From the sequence record OR995200.1: DNA of 64,000 bases; one strand, given 5' to 3'. Origin of the DNA: Escherichia phage JY01. Positions within the stretch are counted from its first letter, which is position 1. Each line of letters opens with the position of its first letter. A program made the position numbers and the translations under genes. Positions 25,182 through 33,105 of the stretch are shown here, piece by piece. The notes beneath the pieces were generated by a model. The model was not told where the DNA came from and searched no databases. It saw nothing but the letters and a program-made list of their open reading frames with translations.

Positions 25182-25252
25182 TATTTTTCCTTTCAATTCA
25201 TGGGTTAGTAGATTAATTATACAATAAATATATAAAGCAATAAGGAGGACAT

Positions 25253-25453
25253 ATGGTACAAAAATTAATGGCACTTGTTAATGCCATCAAAGGTAATAAG
25301 AAACGTATAGCTTTTACTATTTCTGCTATGGTAGGAATTTTACTCTGGAACTTTATTTTATCACCAATTGCAATTGCACATGGTGTTAATATTCCAGTAG
25401 TTACTCTTGATACATTTGTAGATTTAGCATTTGCTTTAGTTGGGTTAATTTAA
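25253..25453 (+). CDS. Small hydrophobic protein on the plus strand (66 aa)
   Basis: Strong AAGGAGG Shine-Dalgarno 5 nt before the ATG. Two predicted transmembrane segments. Convergent with and overlapping the primase stop. Confidence 0.55.
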   Translation: MVQKLMALVNAIKGNKKRIAFTISAMVGILLWNFILSPIAIAHGVNIPVVTLDTFVDLAFALVGLI

Positions 25454-26478
25454 ATCTTAGCATATTTAGATAACCGCATTTTAGCCATCAACCCCTGGGC
25501 AATATTATTTTTCATATATTCCATAATTTGTTCAGGGGTTGCACCTTCCTTTCTAATCATATCATTAACATCTTTTGATTTCCAGGGAGATTTATCCCAA
25601 AACATAACCCTTTCTCCTGCATCAACTAATTTAGTCATTCGCTTAATAGTGTCAGGATGACGAGGTTCATTATCTAAGACCCACACACGCCTATCTTTAA
25701 ATGGAACAACTTCTAGGTCTAATTGACCACCCGTAATAGCTATACCATTTTCAATAAAAAGTGAATCTATAGGTCCTTCTAAAACATATACATCACCATC
25801 TTTAACTCGTTCGACTCCATATATTTTTGTTGCCTCAGGATAAGCTTTGATGGTGATATATTTTTGAGGAGCATCTTTCTTTAATGCACGCCCTTGAAAC
25901 GACTCGGCTTTTCCATTAGCATTATAAATTGGAATAACAAGACGAGGCTCAGAAATTTCCTTTTTGTATGTTCCCGGTGCTATGCTATTAACTAATTTAG
26001 GCCATTCGGTTGTAAACCAAAGATATTTCCATTTATCCTTTGGAATACAACGAGCTTTTACATATTTTATAATTGGATGGTCTTCCACCAGTTTATCTAA
26101 TCTAACACATGACTGAAGAGATTTAATTATTTTCTTCTCAGGATGTTTAGGAAGTTCTTTAGGTTTTTCTACTGGACGACTTTTACCTTTTTCTTTTCTT
26201 ATTTCAAAGATATACTCACGATATAAATCAGGTTCAAACTCCTTTAAATATATTCCGATTGGTGCATGATAGTTACAGTTATAACAATGAATATTTCCTT
26301 CATTATTATCACCGTAATACCATCCACGGGCTTTATTCTGGTCGGTTTTTGAATCTCCACAAACAGGGCATCTAAACCGTAATTTAAAAGTTGAACTATT
26401 ATTTACTTGTGTGAATTTAGGTAAATGAGCTAATGCACGATACGCAAACTCATTATCAATCCAAGGTATTGATGACAT
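25450..26478 (-). CDS. 61: DNA primase
   Basis: 342 aa as in T4 gp61. N-terminal zinc ribbon CPVCGDSK...CYNC. Confidence 0.9.
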   Translation of the reverse strand: MSSIPWIDNEFAYRALAHLPKFTQVNNSSTFKLRFRCPVCGDSKTDQNKARGWYYGDNNEGNIHCYNCNYHAPIGIYLKEFEPDLYREYIFEIRKEKGKSRPVEKPKELPKHPEKKIIKSLQSCVRLDKLVEDHPIIKYVKARCIPKDKWKYLWFTTEWPKLVNSIAPGTYKKEISEPRLVIPIYNANGKAESFQGRALKKDAPQKYITIKAYPEATKIYGVERVKDGDVYVLEGPIDSLFIENGIAITGGQLDLEVVPFKDRRVWVLDNEPRHPDTIKRMTKLVDAGERVMFWDKSPWKSKDVNDMIRKEGATPEQIMEYMKNNIAQGLMAKMRLSKYAKI

Positions 26479-26480
26479 TT

Positions 26481-26645
26481 TTACTCTTCTTTTTCTTTAG
26501 ATTCCTCTTTTTTCTTTTTAGGAATCTGTTCAGGACCTTTATTTACTACAGCGCCCGACGTTGTTCCAGTAGAGATATTTTCAGGATTACCACCTGAATC
26601 TCCAGCTACCATATCTTCTTTAATAAATTCTTTATATGTTTTCAT
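26481..26645 (-). CDS. Small hypothetical protein (54 aa, not in ORF track)
   Basis: MKTYKEFIKEDMVAGDSGGNPENISTGTTSGAVVNKGPEQIPKKKKEE... AGAGGT Shine-Dalgarno. Fills the gap before the primase gene. Confidence 0.35.
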   Translation of the reverse strand: MKTYKEFIKEDMVAGDSGGNPENISTGTTSGAVVNKGPEQIPKKKKEESKEKEE

Positions 26646-26646
26646 A

Positions 26647-27003
26647 TTAACCTCTATTCATAAAAGCATTAAAAATTTGGTCATCAATAGATGGAATAGC
26701 AACCTTTTCGGCATCATTTAGCAAATCATTAATTTCATCAGATAGCATAACACATGTGCCTTTATTTCCTGTAATTGTTACTGCGCAATTACGAACGTTT
26801 TCTTTATCAAATTTTAGGTTAATATTTTCGTAGTGAAAATCCTTTAATGCCGAATATATCTTTAAAATGAAATTGTCTTTTACTACAATAAACCCAACCT
26901 CACTATTAAAACGTGGTTCATGGAAACTGTAATAAACCTTTTCATCTATAAAATCGTATGAAATTTTTTCCATTTTTAAATATGAAAATTCAGAACTATA
27001 CAT
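26647..27003 (-). CDS. Hypothetical protein (118 aa), paralogous tail with the next gene
   Basis: C-terminus SIDDQIFNAFMNRG. The 3' coding DNA is repeated at 27001-27045. Confidence 0.5.
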   Translation of the reverse strand: MYSSEFSYLKMEKISYDFIDEKVYYSFHEPRFNSEVGFIVVKDNFILKIYSALKDFHYENINLKFDKENVRNCAVTITGNKGTCVMLSDEINDLLNDAEKVAIPSIDDQIFNAFMNRG

Positions 27004-27004
27004 A

Positions 27005-27646
27005 TTAACCTTTATTCATAAAAGCATTAAAAATTTGATCGTCAATAGAAACTTTTACTTTAGGCTGTTCTTCAAACGGTAATTCATATCCACATATTAC
27101 AATTTTGTGATCAATATCAAAATACACAGAAGAAATATGATTAATGATGTTTTCAGTAAAGTCTAAATCAACATCAATATCTTTTTGACCACAGCCCAAA
27201 GGATAAATAATGCGAGTAATTCGATTATCTTTAACAAATATTCCACCGACATACTCTGTGCTGCGTTTAAAGTTTACACGTTTCCTAAATGAAAAATATT
27301 CAGGCTCTCTATGAGCTCGGCTCATAGGACACAACGAGTAACTAGAATAAGAGATGTCAAATCCTACACCTTCAATATGAGCCAACGCGTCATGATTAAA
27401 CCAATTATAATCGTACGCCAAATCCATTATATTGTAATATGTGAAAGGCACCGGATTAACATCATGCGTTGTACCTTTAAAATCTGCCCAGGCAACGATT
27501 TCGTTATCTTTAACAATTACAAAAATTGTGCCAATAAGATATCCACGGTTATTTTCATCAGGCGTTATATTATAACATTGTGCACCAGGAAATTTACCGT
27601 ATTTAAACGGTGGATTTTTGTGCATATAATAAATCATATTATTCAC
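27005..27646 (-). CDS. Hypothetical protein (213 aa)
   Basis: C-terminus SIDDQIFNAFMNKG, shared with the downstream 118-aa gene. Confidence 0.5.
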   Translation of the reverse strand: MNNMIYYMHKNPPFKYGKFPGAQCYNITPDENNRGYLIGTIFVIVKDNEIVAWADFKGTTHDVNPVPFTYYNIMDLAYDYNWFNHDALAHIEGVGFDISYSSYSLCPMSRAHREPEYFSFRKRVNFKRSTEYVGGIFVKDNRITRIIYPLGCGQKDIDVDLDFTENIINHISSVYFDIDHKIVICGYELPFEEQPKVKVSIDDQIFNAFMNKG

Positions 27647-27932
27647 CTGTGATTTCGGTTACGATATCTTTGTTATTAAAGTTTTTATCGCAATACAAAA
27701 CATAATTATACTGCATTACACCACCAGACTTAAGCTGTTTTTGCACTTCAGCTTTCATTTCAGGACGATCGCGCTCAACAATATTCATAATATCCGCTTC
27801 AATTTGAGTTTCAACTTCAGTCTGATCCGCAGTCATAGACCATTCACACAAATCTTTATCATAACCTGCCATAGCAGGCTGAGCAGCACAAGAAGCTAAA
27901 GCAAAAATTGTAGCAAAAATAAATTTTTTCAT
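27639..27932 (-). CDS. sp: Spackle (periplasmic superinfection-exclusion protein)
   Basis: 97 aa with a cleavable signal peptide (MKKFIFATIFALASCAAQPAMA), in the 61-41 interval, matching T4 Sp in length and position. Confidence 0.7.
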   Translation of the reverse strand: MKKFIFATIFALASCAAQPAMAGYDKDLCEWSMTADQTEVETQIEADIMNIVERDRPEMKAEVQKQLKSGGVMQYNYVLYCDKNFNNKDIVTEITGE

Positions 27933-27992
27933 GATAATCTCCTCAGTAGTTTATGTTTATATAGTATCTCAATTTCCAACAAAAGTAAATAG

Positions 27993-28250
27993 TTATTTTA
28001 AAACTTCTGCATAATCACATGTTACAAACTGTTTCTCTAACTTAACGATCTTACGAAAATATCTTTTGCATTGACGAATCTGCCTCTTCGTAGGACGTAC
28101 AGCAAACTTAATAAATTCCACTCGACCAAATGGAGGGCTTTCTTCTGCTGGAATATCTAACACCAATTCCCACGTTTCTGCAATAAGTGCTTTGAATTGA
28201 GTATTTTTCCTGACGTTATACGGAGTAGGTTTAAATAAAACAATATGCAT
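27993..28250 (-). CDS. Hypothetical protein (85 aa, 61.4 position)
   Basis: Basic ORF adjacent to dmd. As I recall, T4 61.4 has been reported as a ToxN inhibitor (TifA); homology here is unverified. Confidence 0.45.
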   Translation of the reverse strand: MHIVLFKPTPYNVRKNTQFKALIAETWELVLDIPAEESPPFGRVEFIKFAVRPTKRQIRQCKRYFRKIVKLEKQFVTCDYAEVLK

Positions 28251-28251
28251 A

Positions 28252-28434
28252 TTATCCTCGGCAATCTACTTCACATACTTTCTTGTCATCAATGAAAGCT
28301 TTAACTAATGCTTTATTAACTTCAGCATATTGAGTAGTAGCCCATTGAACGTCATCTTTCATCATTGTGGTTTCTTTAGTAAACATGCTTTCATTCTTAA
28401 ACCACCCCATAAAAACTACCTTTACCAATTCCAT
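28252..28434 (-). CDS. dmd: Dmd, antitoxin against host RnlA/LsoA
   Basis: 60 aa, MELVKVVFMGWFKNESMFTKETTMMKDDVQW..., matches recalled T4 Dmd (gene 61.5) in length and position. Confidence 0.65.
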   Translation of the reverse strand: MELVKVVFMGWFKNESMFTKETTMMKDDVQWATTQYAEVNKALVKAFIDDKKVCEVDCRG

Positions 28435-28461
28435 AACAATCTCCTCATTTAACCAACAAGA

Positions 28462-28494
28462 CTACTATACCATAGTCTTGTCAGCTTGTAAACT
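28462..28494 (-). promoter_or_regulatory. Early promoter upstream of dmd
   Basis: GTTTAC, 17 nt, TGGTATAGT on the minus strand. Confidence 0.5.
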
Positions 28495-29920
28495 AAAATT
28501 TTAATTCATTTGCCAAAGCATCTAACTGAGCTCGAGTGGATTCATTTCTTTGATAGCGATTCTGTTCAGCCTGAATCTGTTGTGAACCTGCTACTTCACT
28601 CACTTCAGTTGGAGTAGAATCTTGTTCAATTTCTACCCATTTTTGATTTCCTTTTTGAACACCCATCAAAAACTTATTCCACTTATTCTTATCACCATAT
28701 CGTGATTTGATTTGCTTAATGAGTTGTTGTTCAGCAGCTGCTAGCTCCTCGGTTTCAATGACCGCAAGCATAAAATCAGCTGTTGCTGGAAGACCAGCAG
28801 ATTCTGCAATATCACTCATGTTAACATCAGAAGAGTCCCAAGCTTGTTTACCGACCTGTGCTGCAGTCCAAAGAACAGTTTCGGTTTCAACAGCCAGAGC
28901 ACGTAATTCCTCTGCAATAGCTTTAACAGTTGTGTAACTATTTTCTGAATAAACTCTAATGCGACAAGATTTACAAATACCTAGATAGTCGACAATAATG
29001 ATCGTTGGAACAAAATTCTTTTTGAGCTTCAATTCATTCAAGAGAGACCTGAATGTATTAGCGTCTGCTCCACCAGTGGGATACTGTTTAACGATTAAAC
29101 GACCGAGAGTAGATTTCTCACGCCATTTTTCCATTTTTCCTTTATACTCGGCGTAAGAAATATGTCCATCATCAATATCGTCAAGAGAAACATCGAGCAT
29201 GTTAGCATCAATACGTTTAGCACAGACTTCTTCTGCCATTTCCATGGAGATATAAAGAACGTTATGACCAAGCTGTAAATAATCCGCTGCTAATGAACAA
29301 AGTCCTAATGATTTACCAACGTTAACGCCAGCCATTAAAACGTTCAGTGTTCCTGTCTCAGCTCCGCCTTTAGTAATTTTGTTTAGAATTCTGAGTTTAA
29401 ATGGAACTTTACGAGCTTTATTCATATAAGATAGCCAGCGTGCTTCGTAGTCATCCATCCAATCATGACCAACGTAGCTATCAAATGAAATTGATAATGC
29501 TTGACGCATGATATCAGGAATAGCACCTACATCTGGCATTTTCTTATTTCGTTTTTCCGGAGGAAGCTCAGCATTAGTTTGAATTTCGATTATTTTAGAC
29601 GTAGCATTAAACATCGCCCTTTGCTGAACATATTTTTCTGTTTCTTTTACTAACCAACTGTGGTCTTCTGGAGAATCGGCTAGTTTTGAAATAAGTGTTT
29701 TTACACCAGAATATTCTGTTTCAGTAAATGAACTATTTTCTAATGCAACATTTAACGCATTAATAGATGGAACGCTATGATACTCATTAACATGAGATTT
29801 AATTAATTTGAATGTATTTTTAGCTGGACCACTTTCAAAATATTCTGAATCCATATATGGCCAAACTTTTGAAAAATAAGCTTGATCAAATATAAGATGA
29901 GAAAGAATAATTTCTACCAC
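28493..29920 (-). CDS. 41: Replicative DNA helicase (DnaB family)
   Basis: 475 aa as in T4 gp41. Walker A GVNVGKS. GTG start codon. Confidence 0.9.
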   Translation of the reverse strand: MVEIILSHLIFDQAYFSKVWPYMDSEYFESGPAKNTFKLIKSHVNEYHSVPSINALNVALENSSFTETEYSGVKTLISKLADSPEDHSWLVKETEKYVQQRAMFNATSKIIEIQTNAELPPEKRNKKMPDVGAIPDIMRQALSISFDSYVGHDWMDDYEARWLSYMNKARKVPFKLRILNKITKGGAETGTLNVLMAGVNVGKSLGLCSLAADYLQLGHNVLYISMEMAEEVCAKRIDANMLDVSLDDIDDGHISYAEYKGKMEKWREKSTLGRLIVKQYPTGGADANTFRSLLNELKLKKNFVPTIIIVDYLGICKSCRIRVYSENSYTTVKAIAEELRALAVETETVLWTAAQVGKQAWDSSDVNMSDIAESAGLPATADFMLAVIETEELAAAEQQLIKQIKSRYGDKNKWNKFLMGVQKGNQKWVEIEQDSTPTEVSEVAGSQQIQAEQNRYQRNESTRAQLDALANELKF

Positions 29921-30274: not shown

Positions 30275-31448
30275 TAAATTCTTCCATATCACTTAACTGT
30301 TCGAGGTCAGTTTCTAAATCAGCAGCTGATTTACTTTTACTTTCTGGAGATTTAAATTTTTCAACCTTTGAGTTAATCAATTCATCAACTTCAGCTTCAA
30401 CAATTTCATTACTATCAATAGCACCTAACTGATAAGCACGTTTAATAGCATCTCGGAATGGTTGATGCTTAAATAAAGGACCCCAGAATGTAGTGCAGTT
30501 AGTATCTTTTGCACGCCAAGATTTTTCTTCGCGAATCATCTCGCCGGTTTCTTCTTCAAGAAATTCACGAGCATACCAACCATTCTTAGGTTTTACTACA
30601 AATCCTAATTCTAGAGCCATATCTAACAATCCAGAATAAGGATCGATACCACCGTCAAATTTAACATCAATAAAGAATTTACTTTTTTCTTTAACGGTAC
30701 GAGATTTTTCTACATTTAGAACAAATTGATACCCCTGAAGATCAGAACCATCTTTAATCTGACGCTTACCGATAATGAATACAGTATCAGCCGAATACAT
30801 TACGCCTGTACCACCTGTCATCACGGTTTTACTAAACATTTCAATTGTTTCAATTGTATGGTTAACCGCAACACACGGAATATTTTTAATGCTAAAATAA
30901 GGAGTAACGATACGGAATAATGACTTCAGTGATTTAGCACGAGTCATATCTGCAACAGATTTTTCATTCAAGGCATCTTCCGTTTCTTTCTTAGAAGCCA
31001 TATTACCGATTGAGTCGATGAATACAATAACCTTTTCGCCACGCTCAATAGCTTCAAGCTGATTCACCATATCAATTTTCAGCTGTTCAACTGATTGAAT
31101 TGGCGTATGAATTACACGTTCCGGGTCAACTCCCATGGATCGCAAATAAGCTGGAGTAATACCAAATTCGCTATCATAGAATAGACAAACCGCGTCAGGA
31201 TATTTGTTCAAATATGCCGCAACCATAGTCAAAGACATATTTGATTTAAAGTGTTTAGAAGGCCCTGCGAAAATAGTTAAACCAGACTGCATACCGCCAT
31301 CAATCGCACCAGAAATAGCGATATTAAGCATTGGGATTTTTGTACGAATTACATCCTTTTCATTAAAGAATTTAGATGTAGTCAGTTCGGCAGTCATTTT
31401 AGAAGTGGAAGCTTTAATCAAACGGGATTTTAAATCTGCAATAGACAT
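30267..31448 (-). CDS. uvsX: UvsX recombinase (RecA-like)
   Basis: 393 aa, Walker A GPSKHFKS. Similar to recalled T4 UvsX with scattered substitutions. Confidence 0.9.
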   Translation of the reverse strand: MSIADLKSRLIKASTSKMTAELTTSKFFNEKDVIRTKIPMLNIAISGAIDGGMQSGLTIFAGPSKHFKSNMSLTMVAAYLNKYPDAVCLFYDSEFGITPAYLRSMGVDPERVIHTPIQSVEQLKIDMVNQLEAIERGEKVIVFIDSIGNMASKKETEDALNEKSVADMTRAKSLKSLFRIVTPYFSIKNIPCVAVNHTIETIEMFSKTVMTGGTGVMYSADTVFIIGKRQIKDGSDLQGYQFVLNVEKSRTVKEKSKFFIDVKFDGGIDPYSGLLDMALELGFVVKPKNGWYAREFLEEETGEMIREEKSWRAKDTNCTTFWGPLFKHQPFRDAIKRAYQLGAIDSNEIVEAEVDELINSKVEKFKSPESKSKSAADLETDLEQLSDMEEFNE

Positions 31449-31525
31449 TCATTTTTTCCATAGGCATCATTATATTTTCCTCACTGGTTAAAGATAGAGT
31501 AATTATAACACAATAAATTTAGGCA

Positions 31526-32368
31526 TTAATCAACTGCTATTGGATGAATAGCATTAAACTTATGAAACGCTTCTGATTTTTCTTTGCGCGAAACACACAT
31601 GCGAAGAACCTTTAATGGCTCGTCTTCTTCACCCAACGATTTTCTCTTTTCAATATTCGATGTTTTCCAACGAGCTTGCTCTGGAAACTCTCTATTGATT
31701 TGCTCAAGCGCTCTATTATGTTTAGAATTACTACGAATTGAACTACATCCGCCAGGAGCTTGTGCTTTTCCAGATACAACCAGATATTTGAACAGGGCCA
31801 AATGCGGATAACCTTGACTAATTAAATTGAGAAATGCATACATATCTTCGCATAAATCAATTTTTCCATACCCAATTTGTTCTGTCGTAAGTTTTCCGAG
31901 GTCATACCATGTATTCGTGAATCCATATGAATTTTCACGATAATTACCCCAAGATGAAGTAATTTTAAAAATAGGTAGACGAGCATGGCCATGATAATAC
32001 CCGCAATCCATGGCATCCTCAACATATTGAATCAATTCATAGAACTGTTCACGAGTCAATTGATTGACTTTATCTACGCAACGACGATCATCTCTTTTTC
32101 GCATTGAACTCATACGAATAGTAGTATCATCGTCAATCATCCAGATTCGTTGACCTGCATATATATCGGTAATTGCTTTACGAGTACCGGCAATTCCGTT
32201 TACATCATCAGGAATAGTTATAATTTTAGCTCTAGACCCATAAGCGTCATGATAAGCTTTTTCTTCATGTTCACGCACTACAATATGGGGTTCATAATCA
32301 GTCGGAAACATATCAAGGGCAGAAACTGCCCCGACACGCTGATAACTTGGAATTACGAATTGAATCAT
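31526..32368 (-). CDS. Putative DNA hydroxymethylcytosine glycosyltransferase, GT-A-like
   Basis: About 280 aa at the locus where T4 has bgt (351 aa). IWMIDDDTTI has a DxD-like motif. ATG overlaps the gene 42 stop. Resembles the T2/T6 arrangement by position only. Confidence 0.55.
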   Translation of the reverse strand: MIQFVIPSYQRVGAVSALDMFPTDYEPHIVVREHEEKAYHDAYGSRAKIITIPDDVNGIAGTRKAITDIYAGQRIWMIDDDTTIRMSSMRKRDDRRCVDKVNQLTREQFYELIQYVEDAMDCGYYHGHARLPIFKITSSWGNYRENSYGFTNTWYDLGKLTTEQIGYGKIDLCEDMYAFLNLISQGYPHLALFKYLVVSGKAQAPGGCSSIRSNSKHNRALEQINREFPEQARWKTSNIEKRKSLGEEDEPLKVLRMCVSRKEKSEAFHKFNAIHPIAVD

Positions 32369-33105
32369 TTCCACTCACCGTTATAATCTTTTTTCACAAT
32401 ATGAGTTTCGCCAGTATTCCACCAATGATCAACCAAGTAAAAATGACGAGAATATACATGAAGACTTCCAACATTCCATATAATAGAACCTGCTTTATAC
32501 TGACGAGTTGAATCGCCGGCATTCAAATCAGATACTAATTTATCTAATACGTATTTTTGCCATGCATAATCATTACGGAATCCGAAGACCACGTCATTTG
32601 AGCGCATGCTTACTACTGCATTGACTTTCTTATCACGAATCAGATACTGTACGGTATTCGTACACATGAAATCTGACATACCATCTTTATTGTAGTCAAA
32701 TTGCATGGATGGACGAGTATAAATCATGATACCACGTCGAGAATCAGGATTTTGACCAAGTTCAGCTAAACACATATCATACTGGGCATAGTTATCTTCT
32801 GACCAGATAGCCCAACCATAATTCGAGTTAATTTCGCCTTTAGAAGATGCTACCTGCTGCCAAATCTTTGGTGTTTCACCTGGAATATCTTTAACAAACA
32901 AGCTCTTAGATTTATACCATTCAAGTTCGCGCTGAATGTATTCATCATTAAGAGCGCCAAAAATAAACGGTTCATCTGCTACAAATGATGCGCCAATAAT
33001 TTCAATAGTTTTAACACCAGTTTTATCAACTACGAAATCTTTTTCTTTTAATGCAAGCCCCAAATGAAGACGGATTTCTTCAACTGTCATAGAGTCACTA
33101 ATCAT
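32365..33105 (-). CDS. 42: dCMP hydroxymethylase
   Basis: 246 aa as in T4 gp42. Thymidylate-synthase-like fold expected. Confidence 0.9.
   Translation of the reverse strand: MISDSMTVEEIRLHLGLALKEKDFVVDKTGVKTIEIIGASFVADEPFIFGALNDEYIQRELEWYKSKSLFVKDIPGETPKIWQQVASSKGEINSNYGWAIWSEDNYAQYDMCLAELGQNPDSRRGIMIYTRPSMQFDYNKDGMSDFMCTNTVQYLIRDKKVNAVVSMRSNDVVFGFRNDYAWQKYVLDKLVSDLNAGDSTRQYKAGSIIWNVGSLHVYSRHFYLVDHWWNTGETHIVKKDYNGEWK

Follow-up and report, generated by a model that had tools for sequence, protein, structure and literature searches.

The dmd-tifA locus of a Tequatrovirus genome: a probable early operon for two independent inhibitors of host toxin-antitoxin RNases

Two small genes follow gene 41 on the minus strand of the window (by which we mean the whole 64-kb stretch of DNA that was analyzed). 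They very probably constitute the dmd-tifA early operon of a Tequatrovirus, the group of T4/T2-like phages, and encode two small proteins that inhibit toxin-antitoxin (TA) RNases of the host independently of each other. None of the observations speaks against this reading. The present analysis establishes which genes these are, how the operon is built, that the residues assayed in published work are conserved and that the pair is single copy; the mechanisms of binding and inhibition are taken from published experiments with T4 and RB69. It should be noted that the gene identities, the operon structure, the mechanism and the concept of an island of anti-TA genes are all already published, and that no biology is added here beyond that of Srikant et al. 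(2022) and Guegler et al. (2023).

Identity and genomic context of the locus

An earlier note on this DNA had placed a pair of antitoxin-type genes downstream of gene 41 at 27993-28434, and the placement is exact: the interval consists of exactly two minus-strand ORFs, of 60 and 85 aa. The features of the region, in the order of transcription, are as follows.

28493..29920, minus strand: gene 41, the replicative helicase and upstream neighbor; a 475-aa ORF, identical to T4 gp41 at 474/475 residues.
28464..28492, minus strand: putative sigma-70-type early promoter of dmd-tifA, with -35 TTTACA, a 17-nt spacer and a TG-extended -10 TATAGT; it lies in the gap that separates gene 41 from dmd.
28252..28434, minus strand: dmd (61.5), 60 aa.
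27993..28250, minus strand: tifA (61.4), 85 aa.
27639..27932, minus strand: sp (spackle, 61.3), the downstream neighbor; Pfam T4_Spackle (E 3.5e-45), and spackle in the annotations of related phages.
27005..27637, minus strand: adfA (61.2), anti-DarT factor A; Pfam AdfA (E 4.6e-136), 77% identical to T4 gp61.2, and so annotated in ECML-363.
26647-27003, minus strand: a 118-aa ORF, a half-size single-domain paralog of AdfA; Pfam AdfA (34.1 bits against a cutoff of 27), phrog_4122.

Thus, dmd is the first gene downstream of gene 41, behind the putative early promoter, with tifA immediately after it, an arrangement that is also that of T4. The product of sp is a periplasmic inhibitor of the gp5 tail lysozyme, and serves in superinfection exclusion.

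The DNA of 27600-28520 is collinear with that of T4 and 97% identical to it, and over 27600-28600 there is 100% identity with Escherichia phage ECML-363. Matches to this 1-kb region (27600-28600) occur in 657 phage records, of which nearly all are from T4-like phages that infect enterobacteria. Together, the collinearity with T4, the identity with ECML-363 and the many T4-like records place the window in a Tequatrovirus genome, and as sequence matches to T4 and its relatives they are far beyond chance. Neither a second copy nor a segmental amplification of dmd or tifA was found when the whole 64-kb window was examined; the pair is present in single copy.

Expression signals

In T4, dmd and tifA form a two-gene operon with an early promoter upstream of dmd (PMC9391042). 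The corresponding TTTACA/TATAGT site in the window has the best promoter-like score in 26300-28700 (10/12 matches, with the TG present), and both of its hexamers are identical to those of T4. The promoter assignment rests on this identity because the scan of 26300-28700 was not enriched over shuffled sequence, giving 12 sites against 12.5. The other promoter-like sites of that region, being at the shuffled level, were dropped, and only the T4-identical one was kept.

Each gene of the pair has a Shine-Dalgarno sequence. That of dmd, GAGGAG at 28441-28446, lies 6 nt upstream of the ATG, and that of tifA, GAGGA at 28255-28259, lies within the last codons of dmd. Between dmd and tifA the scan found neither a promoter-like nor a terminator-like site, and the terminator scan found no intrinsic terminator anywhere in 26300-28700, including after dmd-tifA. 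The stop codon of dmd and the start codon of tifA are 1 nt apart (TAAtATG, 28248-28254, minus strand), because of which tifA is probably coupled translationally to dmd.

The junction of sp and adfA (27635-27641, minus strand) also reads TAAtATG, which suggests coupling within the island of anti-TA genes discussed below. The likely start of adfA is the ATG at 27637, which is the start in the ECML-363 annotation and the one that we prefer because it fits the TAAtATG junction better; the GTG at 27646 is a start only in the sense of the longest ORF.

A strong RNA hairpin of about 15 bp is also present at ~28451-28486 (minus strand), in the gap that separates gene 41 from dmd, and the -10 hexamer of the dmd promoter overlaps with it. 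The 66-nt stretch that contains it has an MFE of -19.8 kcal/mol (z -4.2 vs. shuffles). It is not followed by a T-run and was not called by the terminator scan. The hairpin would be present only in transcripts that read through from gene 41, and may serve as a 3′-end stabilizer or a processing site for the gene 41 mRNA.

The 60-aa ORF encodes Dmd

The earlier note had recognized Dmd in the 60-aa ORF, and the recognition holds: 59/60 residues are identical to those of T4 Dmd (NP_049653; PDB 5HY3_B, "Antitoxin Dmd"), and the Pfam family PF17587 (Dmd) is matched over residues 1-60 of 60 with 153.5 bits (E 1.8e-45; cutoff 27). The ORF also belongs to phrog_2102 (E 5.2e-39). NCBIfam offered no model for Dmd, nor for TifA or the 118-aa ORF. 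Identity to the Dmd of RB69 is 57%.

The sole difference from T4 Dmd is I22T. The exact Dmd sequence of the window, T22 included, is encoded in 99 phage records; T22 is thus a common natural allele, and its being identical in so many records suggests that it is maintained.

Dmd inhibits two HEPN RNase toxins, RnlA and LsoA, in the manner of an antitoxin; its binding site, according to published work, is the groove of LsoA/RnlA between the NRD (the second TBP-like domain, TBP2) and HEPN domains (PMC8266594).

The 85-aa ORF encodes TifA

The second gene had been assigned to the 61.4 position, and alignment with T4 gp61.4 (NP_049652) bears this out: 83/85 residues are identical, the two changes being D25E and I83V. 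The note had also given gp61.4 of T4 as a reported ToxN inhibitor called TifA, which is indeed the name of this inhibitor of the type III toxin ToxN in published work (PMC9391042; PMC10853763). The ORF matches Pfam DUF7279 (72.4 bits, E 2.8e-20; cutoff 24.5) and phrog_2375 (E 4.9e-38). A search of PDB sequences with TifA returned no relative, even at E 10.

The name was given by Srikant et al. (2022, eLife), who evolved T4 on toxIN-positive E. coli and repeatedly obtained segmental amplifications that included tifA (PMC9391042). TifA alone neutralizes the toxicity of ToxN and restores plaquing of T4; at its native level, the tifA of T4 suffices against toxIN on the chromosome but not on a plasmid (PMC9391042). 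Guegler et al. (2023, NAR) found that TifA binds RNA through a basic C-terminal helix and that it also binds ToxN (PMC10853763). The P53-T54 helix cap and K55, R56 and R59 are required for RNA binding, for co-precipitation of ToxN and for rescue; the mutants P53A/T54A and K55A/R56A/R59A have lost function, whereas F41S and F41H strengthen T4 TifA (PMC10853763). The contact with ToxN is made by the interior of an L-shaped fold, the ToxN-TifA interface being known only from AlphaFold models of medium confidence (PMC10853763).

The TifA of the window retains P53, T54, K55, R56 and R59, that is, every residue tested by Guegler et al. (PMC10853763), and has F at residue 41, the weaker, T4-type allele. 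Six homologs were aligned: those of the window, T4, RB69, IME08, Enterobacter phage CIP9 and Pectobacterium phage PM2. The stretch P53-T54-K55-R56-Q57-I58-R59 (PTKRQIR) is invariant in all six, down to 31% identity, and the loop with residue 41 is variable. This pattern agrees with published descriptions of the protein, in which the RNA-binding helix is conserved and specificity is set by a loop. AlphaFold2, run on the single sequence of the window protein, gave strands at 2-6, 27-32 and 46-49, followed by a helix at 55-70, the same order of secondary structure as published (three strands, then a helix), but with a mean pLDDT of 45 and a pTM of 0.34 the model carries no weight, and because of that pLDDT we do not use it as evidence.

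Could the inhibition of ToxN be a side effect, TifA being mainly a general RNA-binding protein that protects RNA from other RNases or modulates the ribosome through 16S rRNA? We consider this unlikely. Specificity is the first difficulty: the TifA proteins of T2, T4, T6 and RB69 are effective against closely related ToxNs alone, a restriction that points to a specific protein contact, although more distant homologs neutralized none of the ToxN or TenpN proteins tested (PMC10853763), as might be said to favor a broader role. The binding of RNA, ssDNA and dsDNA by TifA without clear sequence specificity, and its co-purification with 16S rRNA (PMC10853763), would also fit such a role, as would the fact that it is the RNA-binding helix, and not the ToxN-contacting loop, that does not vary within the family. 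However, the ToxN escape mutations and the F41S/H gain-of-function changes map to the predicted interface (PMC10853763), and it was toxIN selection that amplified tifA time and again.

There is also very little chance that the ORFs, although intact, specify natural alleles (D25E/I83V in TifA and I22T in Dmd) whose activity is altered or lost relative to T4. Single substitutions can shift the potency of TifA strongly, position 41 being an example, but both TifA changes in the window are conservative and lie outside the PT cap, the basic cluster and residue 41. The suggested maintenance of Dmd T22 in the 99 records speaks against altered activity as well. Because the TifA proteins of T2 and T6, which are >96% identical to that of T4, also neutralize ToxN (PMC10853763), it is a safe inference that the window allele is active. 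That E25/V83 of TifA and T22 of Dmd might be tuned to different toxin variants is a weaker possibility than the role for an AdfA paralog considered below.

A shared operon, not a joint machine

The earlier note had suggested that the pair may be a compact anti-TA module. As a description of gene organization this stands, given the published two-gene operon and the "anti-TA island" proposed for dmd, tifA and adfA (61.2) (PMC9391042); what does not stand is any implication of interdependence, as Dmd and TifA have different toxins as their targets and act on them independently.

The distribution of the genes is instructive in this regard. Adjacency of dmd and tifA is found in Tequatrovirus (T4 and the window), Mosigvirus (RB69) and Dhakavirus (IME08). 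In Kanagawavirus CIP9 (of Enterobacter) and Mosugukvirus PM2 (of Pectobacterium), the interval between genes 41 and 61 has a DUF7279/TifA homolog after sp, and among the annotated ORFs of these two 41-61 intervals, to which the scan was confined, none matched Pfam Dmd. Dmd was detected in more phage records than TifA (800 against 674). Thus, co-occurrence in these intervals and record counts is not that of an obligate two-gene module.

That Dmd and TifA cooperate physically or functionally, in acting on the same toxin or in needing each other, is scarcely tenable: the tight linkage with its 1-nt stop/start spacer and the adjacency kept in three genera would agree with it, but the gap is 141 nt in IME08, CIP9 and PM2 have a TifA homolog in intervals with no annotated ORF matching Pfam Dmd, the record counts differ, and the single-gene experiments, in which TifA sufficed for rescue and overexpression of dmd did not rescue T4 on toxIN (PMC9391042), have already largely refuted it. 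Since dmd fails against toxIN and, in more distant T4-like phages, TifA homologs occur with no Dmd found beside them, the two genes share a transcription unit but are not parts of an interdependent machine. In sum, what dmd and tifA have in common is a promoter, within an accessory region that is hypervariable; as inhibitors they are independent.

How the two inhibitors would act

With two independent inhibitors, the course of events can be pictured as follows. The early promoter just downstream of gene 41 would be fired by the host RNA polymerase right after infection, and the one transcription unit would supply both Dmd and TifA, each directed against a different abortive-infection RNase (RnlA/LsoA and ToxN, respectively). 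When host gene expression is shut off, the labile host antitoxin would disappear, and Dmd would stand in for it by binding RnlA/LsoA directly in the NRD-HEPN groove. TifA would contact RNA with its basic C-terminal helix (P53, T54, K55, R56 and R59) and ToxN with the variable loop near residue 41. ToxN would thereby be trapped on abundant cellular RNA, for the most part 16S rRNA, as an inactive ribonucleoprotein complex, and as a consequence of the trapping phage transcripts would be spared.

From the F41 allele and the single gene copy we infer that the phage would behave like wild-type T4, that is, it would beat toxIN at the chromosomal level but not at the plasmid level. The predicted host range is accordingly one of resistance to rnlAB, lsoAB and chromosomal-level toxIN, and of sensitivity to plasmid-level toxIN, the latter because the F41 allele is the weaker one and is present only once.

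A paralog of AdfA in the island

Next to adfA, the window has the 118-aa ORF listed above. Over 106 aa it is 34% identical to AdfA, in the C-terminal half of the latter, and both proteins have the C-terminal motif SIDDQIFNAFMN(K/R)G. The ORF occurs in about 330 phage records, T2 and RB68 among them, and its annotation is always hypothetical. It is a candidate for an extra member of the island, and might be an anti-toxin or anti-defense factor with a target of its own, although we regard such a role as rather unlikely.

Annotation and neighboring differences from T4

The 85-aa "hypothetical protein" can be renamed TifA. Its ortholog is 'hypothetical' or unnamed in every phage record among the matches listed (e.g., AP018814.1, which is T6, and OK272473.1), and the published name is absent from the annotations of the phage records among those matches. 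In a few records a wrong label stands over or near TifA: T6 (AP018814) has 'DNA primase/helicase', and JLBYU31 has 'putative DNA polymerase' within the 1-kb region.

Two differences from T4 were seen elsewhere in the window. In T4, dam adjoins the primase gene 61. Across the 64-kb window, a 626-nt part of T4 dam had no match by blastn or tblastx, and gene 61 is followed by a 66-aa ORF on the opposite strand (25253-25453, plus strand) and then by gene 56. The region of the 66-aa ORF (25242-25453) is a 96% match to the dam-61 spacer of T4. The second difference is at ~31436-32383, where the T4 segment with the segA homing endonuclease and beta-glucosyltransferase is not collinear in the window and has been replaced. 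ECML-363 has a beta-glucosyl-HMC-alpha-glucosyl-transferase annotated beside uvsX, which is the T2/T6-type arrangement.

Comparison with known systems

The closest known counterparts are those of T4. Like T4 Dmd (gp61.5), the Dmd of the window has 60 aa, matches the Pfam family over its full length, is encoded first after gene 41 and has the same promoter hexamers upstream; it differs in having T22 where T4 has I22. TifA, likewise, is of the same length as T4 gp61.4 (85 aa) and is co-operonic with dmd, but has E25 and V83. With laboratory-evolved T4 clones the contrast is in dosage: these carry a roughly tenfold amplification of dmd-tifA, whereas the pair in the window is single copy.

RB69 TifA, a stronger ToxN inhibitor, is of the same family, has the same invariant PTKRQIR at the start of the helix and is likewise encoded directly downstream of dmd. 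The two proteins are 59% identical, and RB69 has H41, which is linked to stronger inhibition, in place of the F41 of the window.

Finally, the segment between genes 41 and 61 can be compared with the proposed anti-TA island. The window has dmd, tifA, sp and adfA in the order of T4, and hence all three published members of the island, and adds to them, between adfA and 61.1, the 118-aa ORF that is absent from T4.
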